From the IMG/VR virus record IMGVR_UViG_2923302340_000001: a stretch of 48,684 nt of DNA, one strand, 5' to 3'. Of this stretch, positions 10,436-29,768 are shown piece after piece. The notes beneath the pieces were generated by a model. It was not told where the DNA came from. It saw only the letters and a program-made list of their open reading frames with translations, and ran no database searches. The translations under genes were made by a program, and so were the position numbers. How positions within the stretch are numbered: position 1 is the first letter of the stretch; each line of letters starts with the position of its first letter. The DNA comes from a virus. Lineage: Duplodnaviria; Heunggongvirae; Uroviricota; Caudoviricetes.

Positions 10436-10475
10436 TACGATTGTGGGTGTCTGGTTGGAAACTGACCAGATATGG

Positions 10476-10600
10476 AAACAAAAAGCCCGCAGATAAATCT
10501 GCGGGCTTCTTGCGACATCCACGGAAAACCAACAAAACAATCCATGGGCGCCTCGACAACTCCCATTATACGTTGGTTTTCCGTGGACGCAAGAGCGAAC
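10476..10600 (-). ncRNA. candidate antisense RNA (CopA-like) opposite the repA leader
   Basis: Minus-strand intrinsic terminator (GCCCGCAG-ATAAAT-CTGCGGGC then T-run, 10476..10506) and 15-bp perfect stem 10519..10533 / 10572..10586 directly upstream of repA start. Confidence 0.3.
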
Positions 10601-10602
10601 AT

Positions 10603-11451
10603 ATGGATAGACCAATGCCGTCTCTACGTTCAGCTTACGTTTGTAATTTGTCGCCGGAGTTCCAGCCTCCAAAGCACCATACGCACAAGCTGCCGCTGGT
10701 GTTATCTGATGCTTTACAGCGCATTTATGGGCGTGATCTTACGTGTGAGGTTGCGTTCTACGTTAATCAACCGTCAGAGCGGAAGCGCCGGATAAACGAG
10801 CATCGTCGTCGGGCGATTAATGCTGTGATTGCTGCGATTTTGCACCATGTAAACATCATTTCTAAGCGGGTTCTGGCCAGTGCTGAGGCGTTGGCTGATT
10901 TTTGCGGCCTGTCTACCGTATCCGAAGCTGGGAACAAATCTATAACGCGCTGTACAAGGGCGTTGTCGCAACTGAAAGCGTTAGGTTTTATTGATTATGA
11001 ACGTCGCTGGGATCGGGTGAATAAACAGTATTGGCCAGCGAAAATAGAGATTCGTGATCAACTGCTGGAAACAGTTGGTATTACTGAACAAGCATGGAGA
11101 CGTGCGGTTAGCCAGAAACTTAATTACTTCAATGCGAAGAATAGCGAACGGCTTAAAAAAGCGATAACGGAGGCTGATTATAAGCGTATTGTTATTCAGG
11201 AGCAGATGGAGAATGTATGGCGTCAGAGGAAGACGGCCAGAGAGATAAAGGCAAAACAGAAAGCAGCGGAGAGAGCTGCGCGTCTTGTTCGGGAAAAGGG
11301 AGAGGCCGAACTTCGTCATCAAATCACTAGAGAGGTTAGCCAGGAATTTGCTGATGGCATGTATCCAGGTGCTGACCTTGCATATTTACGCTCCCTCGTT
11401 GATCAGCGTTATAACAGGCTAAGAAAGACCTGGACATCACTCCAACATTAA
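10603..11451 (+). CDS. repA: replication initiator RepA, IncFII RepA1-like
   Basis: ...RRRAINAVIAAILHH...CGLSTVSEAGNKSITRCTRALSQLKALGFIDYER... resembles RepA1 of IncFII plasmids (recollection); track start 10441 is an in-frame upstream extension; ATG at 10603 or 10615. Confidence 0.7.
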   Translation: MDRPMPSLRSAYVCNLSPEFQPPKHHTHKLPLVLSDALQRIYGRDLTCEVAFYVNQPSERKRRINEHRRRAINAVIAAILHHVNIISKRVLASAEALADFCGLSTVSEAGNKSITRCTRALSQLKALGFIDYERRWDRVNKQYWPAKIEIRDQLLETVGITEQAWRRAVSQKLNYFNAKNSERLKKAITEADYKRIVIQEQMENVWRQRKTAREIKAKQKAAERAARLVREKGEAELRHQITREVSQEFADGMYPGADLAYLRSLVDQRYNRLRKTWTSLQH

Positions 11452-13593: not shown

Positions 13594-13878
13594 TTACTTA
13601 CCATTTTTGCGGTTTTTTTCGGACTTCATAAGCTGGCTAACGCGCCCTGGTGTGATATTTAACATGCGGCTTACTTCAGCTTGTGATCCTACTTCCTCTA
13701 CTAGCGATGCAACATAGCGAGATTTTCCTGAGGAGGTTAATCCATTATATGTTGCTCGTACGACTTTTCCCTGAGCTTCTCTCATATCAACTAATGCCTG
13801 AGCAACCTGCTCAAAACCTTTAATTGTTACTTCTGTTAATGCTCGAATAGCATCAATTTCAGATTTTTGTTTAGCCAT
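13594..13878 (-). CDS. small HTH DNA-binding protein
   Basis: ATG at 13878 (MAKQKSEIDA...); ...SQAEVSRMLNITPGRVSQLM... HTH. Confidence 0.4.
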   Translation of the reverse strand: MAKQKSEIDAIRALTEVTIKGFEQVAQALVDMREAQGKVVRATYNGLTSSGKSRYVASLVEEVGSQAEVSRMLNITPGRVSQLMKSEKNRKNGK

Positions 13879-13925
13879 TTGGCACCTCAAATTGTTTAAA
13901 ATGTGTTAATTACAAAATTCAGCCG

Positions 13926-14534: not shown

Positions 14535-14561
14535 CGCAAAGTGTCATTTTGACACTTTGCG
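14535..14561. promoter_or_regulatory. 27-bp palindrome CGCAAAGTGTCA-TTT-TGACACTTTGCG
   Basis: 12-bp perfect arms, between 14146..14526 and the HTH gene. Confidence 0.4.
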
Positions 14562-14589: not shown

Positions 14590-14862
14590 ATGACGGGTTA
14601 TGAATTGAAATTATGGCGTCGTGGGATGAACTGGACGCAGGAGCGAGCCGCCGAAGAATTTGGGATATCGTTGGCTACATATAAGCGATATGAGAAGGGG
14701 GAGCCGCCGAGGGTCATTGAGATGGCCATTCGCGTTCTGTCGTTTGACGATATGGTGAAGGATCTTTCACACCTTGATAAAGACGCGATTCTGTTAAGGC
14801 TGCAAACCCTTGTATGGGAAAAGGTTAAAGTGTCGTCAGAATTGGAACAAGGGATCAAATGA
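14590..14862 (+). CDS. XRE-family HTH protein
   Basis: AGGAGG-type RBS upstream of ATG 14590; ...WTQERAAEEFGISLATYKRYEKG... Confidence 0.45.
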   Translation: MTGYELKLWRRGMNWTQERAAEEFGISLATYKRYEKGEPPRVIEMAIRVLSFDDMVKDLSHLDKDAILLRLQTLVWEKVKVSSELEQGIK

Positions 14863-14910
14863 TCCTTTACGGATCGTTTTATGGTGGTGTAATGTAAGCG
14901 CCAGAAAGAC

Positions 14911-14936
14911 AAAAACCGCCTTGCCGGGCGGTTTTC
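14911..14936. terminator. bidirectional intrinsic terminator
   Basis: AACCGCC-TTGCCG-GGCGGTT flanked by A5 and T4. Confidence 0.55.
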
Positions 14937-15497
14937 AGTCTGAAATTTAAATCTTGCTTGGTAGGCTGGATTTAAAAAGACACCTCTTGATTGGGGCGGC
15001 TTTCTTGCGTCTAAAGATAATCAAATCTTTTTGCGCCTGCAACCCCTTTTTTACTGGTGCCCATTTCAGACTCACGCTCGCGTCGTTGTCTTTGCCACTT
15101 CGTTGGGTTCGGTGTTTTTGGGCGAAGTGGCGCGCGGGTATGCGTACAAGGGGAAAGTGTGCTGACGCAAGCCAGGAACAGCGATCTAAACTAAGTCGAG
15201 TCTGAGAAAGGCAGGAGTGCGACAACTCGCCTGTGCTCTATGAGCAGAAGAAGGTATATCAGACGACCAATGGCATGATTGTGGGCCACAGGGCGCACAC
15301 GGCGGCGAAGCATTGGAAACGATGTGGAGCTATCTGGTGGCATGAGTTCCGGTACTCGATCTCGAGCTTTTTTTGATGCTTTTGAGAAGGGGCCGGAACT
15401 CCGGTAAAGGGCACCCTGTATGGGGGGAGGGGGGGTTGTGTCTAAAGGAAGATCCAATACGATATTGCTTTACCCTTATATCTAAAAGGAGATTTCT

Positions 15498-16133
15498 ATG
15501 GGGATGCTGGTGGCGTTTATTATTAGCCTGATTTTGTGTTTCTTCGTAGTTCGTGGTGCATATCGGAAACAATGTGGCCCATCTTCTGGTAGTAAGTTCA
15601 AAGCTGTTTTAGTGAGTGGGTTTCTTGGGATTGCTACTTTTGTTGTTGTTAATACTCTTGCTGCTGTGGCCTTGATTCCAGAAGACTCCGGCACTACGGC
15701 TACTACCGGAGCTGCTTTCGATGGCGTGACCGTAGATAAGTTTAAGCAGCTATATAATGATGACCTTGAAGGTATCGCTACATCAGGAAAATCCACCTCC
15801 ACTATAAGAATTAAGTCAGTTAAACAAGGTAACAACACCGTTGAATTTGCCATCAATTCATCTGTTAACGGTCGAGCTAGAGTTGATAAGGATGGGAAGA
15901 TTTCAGAGTTATTATGGCGAGTATCTAAGCCTAGCTCTGATTCCTTGCTTTCTATGGCCGTAGCTGTTGAAGTCTTGGATGCATCAAGTGATAGAGACAC
16001 AGTGATCGCGCAGTTAGAGCAGATTGTTAAATCTGATACGCAGAAAGCTGAGTTTAAGACTAAGAGAGGCGAGTATTACGTTTCTCGTGACAAATCAGGG
16101 CACGTGTCGCTACTGATTACACCGAAATATTAA
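15498..16133 (+). CDS. membrane-anchored protein, unknown function
   Basis: AAAGGAG RBS; N-terminal hydrophobic helix LVAFIISLILCFFVV plus a second hydrophobic stretch; rest hydrophilic. Confidence 0.4.
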   Translation: MGMLVAFIISLILCFFVVRGAYRKQCGPSSGSKFKAVLVSGFLGIATFVVVNTLAAVALIPEDSGTTATTGAAFDGVTVDKFKQLYNDDLEGIATSGKSTSTIRIKSVKQGNNTVEFAINSSVNGRARVDKDGKISELLWRVSKPSSDSLLSMAVAVEVLDASSDRDTVIAQLEQIVKSDTQKAEFKTKRGEYYVSRDKSGHVSLLITPKY

Positions 16134-16144
16134 GAATTGAAGAA

Positions 16145-16169
16145 GCGCCCAAATCGGGCGCTTTGTTTT
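16145..16169. terminator. intrinsic terminator
   Basis: GCGCCC-AAATC-GGGCGC followed by TTTGTTTT. Confidence 0.5.
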
Positions 16170-17310
16170 ATGGTTTTGCACCTGCGGCCAGTTTATCCGC
16201 AGATATCTTTATCAGTTCCTGTAGTGTCCTGGCTGGTAGGTTTGCATCCAGTACGCTGAGTATGCTGTTGTGATCTGCCTGGTCGACTACTTTGCCTGTC
16301 GGTGGTAGTAGCTTGAGCTGAGGATTCAGGTTTTCGTCAAAGCTGATCAGTGCTCTGGCGTTTCTGAGCAGATCAAGAAGTAAGGCTGATATCACATCAT
16401 CTTTAGTCATTGTTGGTAGATTTAGTGCCGCTTTAGTTTTCTCCGTCGCCTTGTCAAACTCTTTGATTAGTGTCTTGCGGTAGTTTGGTTCCGTTAATAG
16501 CCGATGATGTTCTGTTGCCGTTCGGATAATCTTTGTTTCCTGATACAGTCGGTTGTATAGCATTCGCTCGTATTCTGCCTTTAACACGCTGCTGATAGCG
16601 TTAAAGGCTTCAATGTAGGCCAGCTTGATATCCTTCACGCCTGGACCGTCGATACTTTCCATGAGCAAGGTAAATCCGTCTTTTGTCATGCGATAGATTG
16701 TTATTTCGCGGTCGCTTCCTTCCAGCGGTCGTTGCTCTTTAAAGAAATGACGTGCCGCAGCTGTACGAGGAATGCGTAACGCATCGATGGCCATAACGAT
16801 GGAATTGTTTGTGGTGCTGAATGCCTGGGCTACATCGGCTGAGGTTGTGAGTGGCTCGTTGTTGCACACCTTAACGTAATACATTGGTTTGGCGTTGAGT
16901 GTATCGACAACCTCACGAGCATTGTTTGGCGAGACGGTTACGGTCGCGGCCGTTTGCGCGTTCTGGTTGAAATAGCAGTCTTCCAGCCGTTCGAATACAT
17001 CCCACGCCTGATCGGTTTCGAGCATTTTAGCGTGACGTGCAGCCCCGCGTTCGGTCCAGAGAATTAGGGAGCGGGCATTTTTACCAACTAACCCGATTGT
17101 TTCGGGTCTGTTCTTGAACTCGCGTAATTCGTTTTTTTCAATTTTAAAGTAATGCTTTCCGGCTACGAATCGCGTCGTGTTGTTCAGAAAGTTATCAGAA
17201 ATGTTTTTGATTTTCGTTCCGTATAACTGCGCCAGAAGTTCACTAGTGATAACGGGGATCTGGTTATGCAGGATAGGCTGTAGGGTGTTAACGGTCGGAA
17301 GCGTTTTCAT
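16168..17310 (-). CDS. antirepressor-like protein (KilA-N/ORF6N-type N-terminal domain plus Rha-like domain)
   Basis: 380 aa; N-terminus ...PVITSELLAQLYGTKIKNISDNFLNNTTRFVAGKHYF...; domain calls by recollection. Confidence 0.55.
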   Translation of the reverse strand: MKTLPTVNTLQPILHNQIPVITSELLAQLYGTKIKNISDNFLNNTTRFVAGKHYFKIEKNELREFKNRPETIGLVGKNARSLILWTERGAARHAKMLETDQAWDVFERLEDCYFNQNAQTAATVTVSPNNAREVVDTLNAKPMYYVKVCNNEPLTTSADVAQAFSTTNNSIVMAIDALRIPRTAAARHFFKEQRPLEGSDREITIYRMTKDGFTLLMESIDGPGVKDIKLAYIEAFNAISSVLKAEYERMLYNRLYQETKIIRTATEHHRLLTEPNYRKTLIKEFDKATEKTKAALNLPTMTKDDVISALLLDLLRNARALISFDENLNPQLKLLPPTGKVVDQADHNSILSVLDANLPARTLQELIKISADKLAAGAKP

Positions 17311-17498
17311 TTTGCACCTCCCATAACTACTTTGGTTACGAGGGAGATTTTTGCGTCAGAAACAGCGTTATCGTTGCTGGCGATGCGCATAGCTTCGCGC
17401 TCGATGATTTCAGCCAGGCGGAATTTATCGGCGTATGAGGCTTTCTTGAGAAGGATCTTTACGAGGTTGACGTAATAGTCATGGGGTAAGTTTGTCAT
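17307..17498 (-). CDS. small protein translationally coupled upstream of antirepressor
   Basis: 63 aa; ATGA overlap with 16168..17310. Confidence 0.3.
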   Translation of the reverse strand: MTNLPHDYYVNLVKILLKKASYADKFRLAEIIEREAMRIASNDNAVSDAKISLVTKVVMGGAK

Positions 17499-17662
17499 GG
17501 TGATAGTTCCCTTAAAGGTTAAGGATACTCACCACCGTCTGGTTCCAATCATTGGGTGGTGAGACGTACAGGGTTGGAACTACCGGTCACCATGGAATCC
17601 GGCGAGTCTTACGACTCCCCCGCACGCCCCACCATAATTTGGGTGTAGCAGTGCTTTACGCA

Positions 17663-17683
17663 TAAAAAAACCGCTAACGCGGT
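17663..17683 (-). terminator. candidate intrinsic terminator (minus strand)
   Basis: ACCGC-TAAC-GCGGT followed on the minus strand by T7. Confidence 0.4.
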
Positions 17684-17828
17684 ATGCGCCATGATGATTA
17701 TCGGGGTTCCAATCCCGACCGTAGATTTTGCTACGGCTCGGAAAGTGTCCACCAATGGCGCATTCATGTCAATACGGCGGGATTTTAACAGAGACAACCA
17801 CATAGCGTGGGTTTATTGGTAGGCAGAA

Positions 17829-17857
17829 ACAAAAAAACCGCCCTATTGAGGACGGTT
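17829..17857 (-). terminator. candidate intrinsic terminator (minus strand)
   Basis: AACCGCCC-TATTGA-GGACGGTT followed on the minus strand by T7GTTT. Confidence 0.4.
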
Positions 17858-18234
17858 CTTTCGTGCTGATCGGATTCGCGGTCCTTTCAGCATTACGTTG
17901 TTGTATAAATACAACCACGCAAGCACAAACAGCGATCATATTCTTACCCAACTGAATAAAATTGTCCAAATAAATTTGGTTTATTAGAGCACAAAAGCGA
18001 GTGATTTTTGTGGTGTGTATTTAAGTTGATGAAAAACAATATGTTTTTATCCCTTCATTATGAAGGGGCTGCGGTGTAACATTACGCGGGGCCTTTTCGC
18101 CGATTCGCAACCGGGCACCGACTTTCAGGAAAGGATTATCCACTTGCCGTACCACGCAGGCACAAACAGCGTGCTTGCTCTCGCGTCATTTTCGTCGGTG
18201 GGGATGCCGTGAAACGGCCTGTAAGGGCCACACA

Positions 18235-18357
18235 ATGAAAAAATACTACATGTGTATTTTTATCGTTGTTACTGGAGCTTTGTTTACGCCACATGGGGAG
18301 GGTTGGAAGATTACTGATAACGCTCTGAATGTGACGATAAACATTAGCAGCAAGTAG
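18235..18357 (+). CDS. small hydrophobic peptide (40 aa)
   Basis: MKKYYMCIFIVVTGALF...; followed by a strong terminator. Confidence 0.2.
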   Translation: MKKYYMCIFIVVTGALFTPHGEGWKITDNALNVTINISSK

Positions 18358-18362
18358 CGATT

Positions 18363-18386
18363 AGGCCCCTTCGGGGGCTTTTTTTA
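18363..18386 (+). terminator. intrinsic terminator
   Basis: AGGCCCC-TTCG-GGGGC followed by T7. Confidence 0.6.
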
Positions 18387-29692: not shown

Positions 29693-29768
29693 GGCCCCTT
29701 AGCTTAGTGGTTAGAGCAGGCGACTCATAATCGCACGGTCATCGGTTCAAATCCGGTAGGGGCCACCA
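29693..29768 (+). tRNA. tRNA with anticodon CAU (Met, or lysidine-modified Ile2 type)
   Basis: 76-nt cloverleaf: acceptor stem GGCCCCU/AGGGGCC, T-loop TTCAAAT, anticodon loop CTCATAA, encoded 3' CCA. Confidence 0.85.

Follow-up and report, generated by a model that had tools for sequence, protein, structure and literature searches.

Origins of the ColE1 type, at which a transcript (RNAII) primes replication under the control of an antisense RNA (RNAI), are regarded as a hallmark of small, multicopy, mobilisable plasmids. R-loop-primed origins are also found in phages, e.g. oriF and oriG of T4 and the primary origin of T7, and in human mitochondria the G6AG7/8 tract of conserved sequence block II (CSBII) is where a primer for replication arises, from a hybrid G-quadruplex/R-loop made with the nascent transcript. 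ColE1 origins coexist with Rep-type replicons in larger plasmids, where they are often overlooked, and according to a survey of 1,035 members distant variants may exist (PMC8683028). Here we describe a conserved block, 14863-15448, in 48,684 nucleotides (nt) of viral DNA (Caudoviricetes; IMG/VR record IMGVR_UViG_2923302340_000001), the whole of which is hereafter called the window. A sequence-only reading had marked 14863-15497, between an XRE-type regulator gene and a membrane-protein gene, as a structured region poor in open reading frames (ORFs) with a G6AG7 tract, and all the features that it listed (hairpins, G tract, lack of ORFs) are present where it placed them. The block, a core module of a phage-plasmid, is probably an RNA-primed origin of ColE1 type, highly diverged and with its copy number under antisense control. 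That it belongs by descent to the ColE1 class appears somewhat more likely still.

By aligning window positions 14900-15450 globally with the RNAII regions of eight plasmid origins (ColE1, pTHO-004-4 and six further plasmids, with RNAI confirmed by Rfam at 74-98 bits in all eight), we obtained scores of 94-136. Dinucleotide shuffles and 170 other segments of the window were used as controls. The shuffles scored about 38-41 (standard deviation about 8-9) for two of the targets, and the other segments averaged about 29, with maxima of 55-80, for the same two. Over all eight targets this corresponds to z values of 6.0-11.4 against the shuffles and 6.3-11.6 against the other segments, the block being the top-scoring of 171 segments in every case. 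With stem-loop 1 (SL1) removed, z was still 4.1-8.1, and sequences of the Salmonella type gave the same alignment behavior. The alignments are collinear and pick out a G-rich core, a GAAA-capped hairpin and a block at oriV; promoter, SL1 and core are homologous to their counterparts in ColE1-family origins, and the oriV block is probably so. The invariant core, ACAAGGGGAAAGTGTGCTGACGCAAGCCAGG, is aligned with the G-rich '-265' region of ColE1 RNAII, TGAACGGGGGGTTCGTGCACACAGCCCAGCTTGG, the G6 of ColE1 being located at -269..-264. Upstream of it, the loop GTTGGGTTC of the hairpin at 15094-15131 aligns with GGTTGGACTC of the family, and downstream the GAAA-capped hairpin aligns with the ..GGGGGAAACGCC.. 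hairpin of ColE1. The oriV block, TCGAGC-TTTTTTTGATGC-TTTTGAGAAGGGGCCGGAACTCCGGTAAAGGGC, aligns with ColE1 TTGAGCGTCTATTTTTGTGATGCTCGTCAGGGGGGCGGAGCCTATGGAAAAACGC; in place of the oriV motif of the family (G-run, CGGAGCC, TATGGAAAAAC) it offers a collinear stretch of about two-thirds identity with a weak nhmmer match. From positional homology, the preprimer would start at about 14902-14903 and switch from RNA to DNA at about 15406-15409, giving about 507 nt as compared with 556 nt in ColE1 and about 510-530 nt in other family members. A switch after the G tract (CTAAAGG, 15442-15448) was our first model and was replaced by this homology-based position; conservation does reach 15448.

The 5' end of the block carries a predicted RNAII-like promoter. 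Dam GATC sites at 14861-14864 and 14872-14875 flank the -35 region (TTTACG, 14866-14871), and the -10 element is TAATGT (14890-14895) or, alternatively, an extended -10, TGgTGTAAT (14885-14893). The GATC-N7-GATC spacing is identical to that of ColE1-family RNAII promoters, GTAAT(C/G)T stands 19-20 nt before the SL1 stem as it does there, and the promoter alignment also shows TTTT and AAAAACCGCC..GGCGGTTTT. In the comparison set used throughout, 21 distinct block sequences from viral, plasmid and metagenome sources, this promoter is invariant save for the spacer at 14881-14884. The sequence upstream of SL1 is TGATCCTTTACGGATCGTTTT...GTGTAATGT in the window, GGATCTTCTTGAGATCCTTTT...GCGTAATCT in ColE1 and TGATCTTCTTGAGATCGTTTT...GCGTAATCT in a ColE1-like plasmid of Salmonella Senftenberg. 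An nhmmer search of the whole window with a profile of eight family members matched 14877-14936 on the correct strand (E 1.3e-6). SL1 by itself matches the family profile with an E of 9.6e-5, and its hairpin was found by blastn in about 1,500 small ColE1-type plasmids. This is the hairpin formerly taken for a bidirectional terminator: its stem, AAAACCGCC/GGCGGTTTT, occupies 14912-14920/14927-14935, and the terminator call of the scan is for the minus strand.

Substitutions in the 5' part of the block concentrate in the loops of three consecutive stem-loops, as would be expected of kissing-loop specificity determinants. By lineage, the SL1 loop reads TTGCCG or TTGCAG, the SL3 loop TTGATT, TCAATT or TTAAAT, and the loop and upper stem of SL2 UUGGUAG, UUGGCG or UGGGCA, with the stem re-paired (helix 2). 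In each of four lineages, the minus strand from 15008 to 14905 is predicted to form three stem-loops (z -3.2 to -3.75), an architecture that was also obtained for ColE1 RNAI when it was folded for comparison. A weak candidate promoter for such an antisense RNA is TTGCAG (15042-15037) and TATCTT (15019-15014), separated by 17 nt; a shorter form of 74 nt with two stem-loops is also possible. Elsewhere in the window, the 5' part of the family profile matches once more, though less well, at 17796-17887 on the plus strand (GAAACAAAAAAACCGCCC..GGACGGTTCTTTCG; nhmmer E 2.7e-4). This stretch is terminator-like on the minus strand and lies just 5' of isrK, and it could be a relic of an RNAI/RNAII 5' end or merely a similar terminator.

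The block is the best-conserved segment of its neighborhood. Between E. coli-type and Salmonella-type sequences it is 88.8% identical, as compared with 79-80% for higB and higA, 74-77% for the repA and parA regions, 72% for the XRE gene and 70% for a 126-aa ORF. This conservation is not that of a protein-coding sequence: in the divergent, Salmonella-type lineages, frameshifts or stops interrupt all plus-strand ORFs of at least 15 aa, and the sole ORF that stays open, 15191-15343 on the minus strand, shows 10 non-synonymous and 3 synonymous changes. Thus, no ORF of that size remains intact with protein-like substitution in divergent relatives, in agreement with the original observation that no convincing ORF is present.

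By contrast with its coding capacity, the RNA structure of the block is well supported by RNAalifold and pair counting on the 21 sequences, with slid alignments as controls. The consensus contains 137 local pairs, and pairing holds in 99.5% of the cells. In eight pairs both partners had changed (0-2 in the controls), 33 additional pair types were seen (8-13 in the controls), and the covariation score was 0.072 (0.010-0.023 in the controls); many of the substitutions are swaps between G-U and Watson-Crick pairs. Among the cells that depart from the consensus, 104 of 117 are still paired on the plus strand, but a minus-strand reading of these pairs keeps only 70 of 117, and the consensus energy is -171 and -115 kcal/mol, respectively. 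Since the plus-strand reading retains more pairs and has the lower consensus energy, the functional molecule would be the plus-strand RNA. Folding of a 561-nt stretch against shuffles gave a modest excess (z -2.7 for the plus and -2.9 for the minus strand), so that structure beyond chance is modest by whole-stretch folding and appears more clearly by covariation. Covariation analysis of homologous regions, which had been proposed as a check, accordingly finds the structures conserved in related genomes. Rfam gave no match within 14863-15497 at the gathering threshold, and only chance-level matches at E up to 10.

Both 9-bp stems listed earlier were recovered, namely GCCACTTCG/CGAAGTGGC at 15094-15102/15123-15131 and GAGTTCCGG/CCGGAACTC at 15344-15352/15393-15401, the latter enclosing a T-run at 15368-15374. 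In the longer hairpin that this second stem closes, three pairs vary, on one side only and via G-U intermediates. Two natural variants carry internal deletions and are otherwise intact: L042 (metagenome Ga0308157_10026280) has lost about 48-50 nt, comprising the hairpin at 15094-15131 with some bases next to it, and L038 (an ERZ791802 contig) has lost 22 nt (15194-15215). This suggests that the deleted sub-elements are dispensable. Two leads from the invariant core came to nothing. A 19-mer used in an exact-pattern scan of GTDB genomes gave two matches without further similarity, i.e. chance, and nine nucleotides that agree with the XerC arm of cer (TGCGTACAA, 15142-15150) were likewise put down to chance, as no XerD arm was seen on reading.

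The conserved unit is 586 bp long and ends at 15448; the final 49 bases of the interval first marked belong to a variable downstream cassette. Five different sequences follow the block. In the window it is the gene of the 211-aa membrane protein, whose ORF begins at 15498 and for which no Pfam family was found; in ATCC 25922 and the Yersinia phages it is an ORF of about 61 aa, in Salmonella Concord a diverged homolog, and in one viral contig another variant. In Salmonella Weltevreden a terminator abuts a convergent Rha gene, and no co-oriented gene is present. This cargo hot spot covers 15449-16165 in the window, and its equivalents in loci L001, L003, L004, L005 and L016 all start within a few bases of 15448. 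As the sequences beyond 15448 are unrelated, the G tract travels with the upstream block and not with the membrane-protein gene. The tract itself, GGGGGGAGGGGGGG, is found at 15422-15435, and is the single such tract in the 48.7-kb window, where 0.09 would be expected by chance. The exact G6AG7 occurs in 36 loci, and among the 21 distinct sequences its variants are base substitutions, without changes in length. In the Pantoea ColRNAI plasmid pPSP-b98, a G6...G6AAAG6 arrangement stands at a comparable place just 3' of oriV; there (locus L067) the canonical ColRNAI origin is followed by CCGGGGGGCCTGGCTCGGGGGGAAAGGGGGGTG about 25-55 nt after oriV. Paired G tracts just past the switch may recur, as accessory elements, in some ColE1-like origins.

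Table 1. Predicted and observed features of the block and its surroundings (window coordinates).
Feature	Position	Strand	Remarks
Predicted RNAII-like promoter	14861..14895	+	Two Dam GATC sites, -35 region, -10 element
Predicted RNAII-like preprimer, about 507 nt	14902..15409	+	Ends placed by positional homology with ColE1
Predicted RNAI-like antisense RNA, about 100 nt	14905..15008	-	Short 5' tail and three stem-loops
Stem-loop 1 of primer RNA (the earlier 'bidirectional terminator')	14907..14941	+	On the minus strand, predicted Rho-independent terminator of the antisense RNA
Stem-loops 2 and 3	14947..15003 (14947-14975, 14976-15003)	+	With SL1, predicted target of the antisense RNA; loops lineage-specific
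Hairpin with 9-bp stem	15094..15131	+	Helix 6; more covariation than anywhere else in the region, both partners having changed in five pairs that still pair
Invariant core, GGGG at 15150-15153	15133..15182	+	One singleton substitution in the 21 distinct sequences
Hairpin capped by GAAA tetraloop	15310..15325	+	Helix 16; two pairs changed on both sides, three on one side, pairing kept
Long terminal hairpin directly 5' of predicted origin	15344..15401	+	Helix 18; twenty pairs, 100% paired
Block aligned to ColE1 oriV	15364..15412	+	Predicted RNA-DNA switch at A15406-A15408
G6AG7 tract	15422..15435	+	Within the conserved block, 13-27 nt past the predicted switch
End of conserved block, start of variable cargo cassette	15448..15449		Five different sequences follow in relatives
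P1-like immI module	17552-17737; 18087-18385; 16168-17498	-; +; -	

From these comparisons we infer the transcripts and their ends, the priming, the dependence on host enzymes and the role of the G tract, as follows. A sigma-70 promoter overlapped by the two Dam sites would fire at about 14902 and produce a structured, non-coding, RNAII-like preprimer of about 500 nt from the plus strand, the first 100 nt or so of which would form the three stem-loops. An RNAI-like antisense RNA of about 100 nt would be made from the minus strand and end at the 14910-14937 hairpin. Loop-loop pairing of the two RNAs would cause the preprimer to refold and thereby block priming, which would set copy number and incompatibility. 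An unblocked preprimer would form a persistent RNA-DNA hybrid at about 15389-15435, in which the invariant G-rich core (15150-15153) and G-rich/C-rich stretches may participate; host RNase H would then cut the hybrid near A15406-15408, and DNA polymerase I would extend the end. By analogy, the G6AG7 tract may stabilize the persistent hybrid or the displaced strand, anchoring the R-loop via an rG:dC hybrid or via a G-quadruplex in the displaced strand. Such an origin might serve lysogenic maintenance or lytic amplification.

Several observations weigh against this interpretation. A generic sigma-70 scan calls neither the primer nor the antisense promoter, and the hexamers of the latter are invariant yet match the consensus at only 7 of 12 positions, which makes the 5' end of the antisense RNA uncertain. 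The Rfam RNAI model (RF00106) scores 18.1 bits on the minus strand against a gathering score of 47, and skips the middle stem-loop. A blastn comparison of the region with ColE1 and pTHO-004-4 finds the SL1 hairpin and nothing beyond it, and the middle 300 nt or so are recognizable by global alignment alone, in which controls with permuted blocks now and then score as high as the block itself (for one target up to 99, as compared with 97). At oriV, the nhmmer match is sub-threshold (E 0.17 for the region only, E 31 window-wide), and the -20 G-run is a G4, not a G6. In PLSDB, the plasmids that carry the block are given no ColRNAI type by MOB-suite, and six checked accessions of the family are absent from the supplementary tables of the 1,035-member survey. 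Moreover, the origin need not be used at all, since the element already has a RepA of the IncFII family.

Another explanation is that the block is a structured regulatory RNA with a cis-antisense partner, exapted from or resembling a ColE1 origin, which regulates immunity, lysogeny or cargo and does no priming. RNA structure and a predicted antisense pair are what the evidence shows, the oriV motif is weakly conserved, the element has its own RepA replicon, and the block adjoins the XRE regulator, near a P1-like immI module with C4 and isrK RNAs. On the other hand, no target is evident, the downstream gene is variable or absent, the conserved block stops shortly past the predicted switch, and the parts best conserved with ColE1 are those that priming needs (Dam-site promoter, -265-like core and oriV block). 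Such a regulator is considered unlikely, though it is the most credible of the alternatives. The suggestion of a regulatory RNA in the sequence-only reading thus stands in that the block is non-coding, with covarying plus-strand structure and a predicted antisense RNA, while an origin of ColE1 type is the better reading of its function. Strong divergence from all known ColE1 origins, the lack of rop or mob genes nearby and the two metagenome variants with deletions of 50 and 22 nt could also point to a decaying, functionless relic, left behind when a small ColE1-type plasmid had at some time formed a co-integrate with the phage-plasmid. A relic would, however, hardly be the most conserved segment nearby in essentially every family member, with compensatory or pair-preserving substitutions and an invariant 50-nt core, and we regard this as very improbable.

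The G tract had also been proposed as a slippage-prone, phase-variable switch acting on the membrane-protein gene that follows, which is a candidate for superinfection exclusion. Contingency loci are classically homopolymeric tracts, and this long one lies 62 nt 5' of the start codon at 15498. The proposal is not supported in view of the constant tract length in all 36 loci (as assembled), of the linkage of the tract to the upstream block while the next gene is replaced or absent in relatives, and of the similar tract that follows oriV in the Pantoea plasmid; we give it even less credence than the relic. Least probable of all are unannotated small proteins, such as a type I toxin with an antisense antitoxin. 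The region does contain ORFs of 42-92 aa on both strands, and the pairing of a long structured RNA with an antisense RNA at its 5' end is reminiscent of hok/sok, but the loss of every plus-strand ORF in the Salmonella-type lineages leaves no conserved small hydrophobic ORF, and the substitutions in the one open minus-strand frame are mainly non-synonymous.

The window is a phage-plasmid of about 48 kb. Its block matches the Yersinia myoviruses vB_YpM_39/41/44 and 61 PLSDB plasmids (about 47-50 kb), as well as plasmids belonging to 71 complete E. coli genomes, and is without annotation in every record matched. Among these plasmids is that of ATCC 25922 (NZ_CP009073.1; 48,488 bp), in which the block occupies 17039-17624. 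The element combines P2-like tail genes with lambda-like head and terminase genes, an IncFII-family RepA, ParA, a HigBA pair and the P1-like immI module (C4 RNA, isrK and an ORF6N/Rha antirepressor). The capsid gene of the same backbone is found in 60 PLSDB records, and as this matches the 61 records with the block, the latter is a core part of the phage-plasmid family. The pSLy3 phage-plasmid group was considered as part of the same family and rejected, being SSU5-related instead. RepA (10441-11451) is the only recognizable replication protein in the window and the sole one annotated by RefSeq in the ATCC 25922 plasmid, for which no helicase, primase or phage initiator is listed. The 32-kb deletion derivative pCREC-544_3 retains both repA and the block and thus does not tell which origin is in use.

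For an origin of ColE1 type, a further, more tentative proposal can be made, which we would not yet put at even odds: that an infectious temperate myovirus, obtained as the Yersinia phages and common in E. coli and Salmonella as plasmids of about 48 kb, replicates, in the plasmid state or in lytic growth, from a protein-independent origin with its own lineage-specific RNAI control and a G6AG7 anchor for an R-loop or G-quadruplex. It would represent a deeply divergent ColE1 branch missed by replicon typing and, as far as we have found, the first case of such an origin in a natural phage; no account of the element turned up in searches of the literature. If true, the ColE1 class would extend to viruses, the replication of a phage family without recognizable phage replication genes would be explained, and an antisense-RNA incompatibility determinant would be added to phage-plasmid biology. 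The sub-threshold Rfam score, the lack of a ColRNAI type from MOB-suite and the absence of the checked accessions from the ColE1 survey would then mark a blind spot of replicon typing, concerning a plasmid that many clinical isolates carry, as does the standard reference strain ATCC 25922. The invariant G6AG7 beside the predicted RNA-DNA switch could furthermore serve as a bacterial model for G-tract-assisted primer formation.

The surroundings of the block offered some additional observations. The gene on its 5' side encodes an HTH_3/XRE protein, as had been stated, and homologs of this gene at 44-62% identity in 20 metagenome loci are without the block and without an analog of the G tract, so that the RNA is not coupled to the XRE gene family. 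Just 5' of this gene lies a perfect palindrome (14535-14561) with 12-bp arms, CGCAAAGTGTCA-TTT-TGACACTTTGCG, which was flagged as terminator-like by the scan and resembles an autoregulation operator; its half-site core, AAAGTGT, also occurs in the invariant core of the RNA (15154-15160). A 98-aa ORF between higA and the 126-aa ORF (13594-13890, minus strand) has weak matches to HTH and sigma-70 region 4-like domains and is annotated in some relatives only. In the immI module, the C4 antisense RNA and isrK stand 5' of a 63-aa icd-like ORF and the 380-aa ORF6N/Rha antirepressor; a ryfA-family RNA, with a small hydrophobic ORF within its sequence, adjoins the module. Lastly, a tRNA with anticodon CAT at 29693-29768 is called tRNA-Met by ARAGORN, while its equivalent on the plasmid of ATCC 25922 is a tRNA-Ile of the lysidine type according to RefSeq.

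Compared with known systems, the block shares with T4 oriF/oriG and the primary origin of T7 a phage genome with a promoter-driven transcript proposed to prime leading-strand synthesis; unlike the block, these have no antisense copy-control RNA, and they show no homology with it. Mitochondrial CSBII has the identical G6AG7 where the transcript is proposed to become a DNA primer, which is a mechanistic lead only: there is no homology, the polymerases are others, and the tract lies here 3' of the switch predicted from ColE1. The best global scores (136 and 127) were obtained with the ColE1-like origins of Pantoea sp. PSNIH2 pPSP-b98 and of Edwardsiella/Kosakonia (L067, L065 and L066), which have the same TGAGnnCCGGnAnTCG insertion before the T-run as the block. 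Unlike the block, they carry a canonical RNAI (Rfam 86-95 bits) and a canonical GGGCGGAGCCTATGGAAAA oriV, and the middle of their RNAII is not recognizably similar to it. From ColE1 itself the block differs in going unrecognized by Rfam RNAI, by blastn beyond SL1 and by nhmmer beyond promoter and SL1, in having G4 for G6 at -20 and G6AG7 just past the predicted switch, in lacking rop, mob and cer, and in its host replicon, a 48-kb infectious myovirus and phage-plasmid that also has an IncFII-type RepA and ParA. With the ColE1/pMB1/ColRNAI origins it has in common a non-coding unit of about 500-555 nt, two GATC sites with equal spacing, a GTAATNT -10 at the same distance from SL1, a near-identical SL1 that would double as the RNAI terminator, a predicted antisense RNA of about 100 nt with three stem-loops, a G-rich core about 250-270 nt 5' of the predicted origin and, with a weaker match, a T-run-GATGC-G-run-CGGA-...-GGnAAA motif at that origin.

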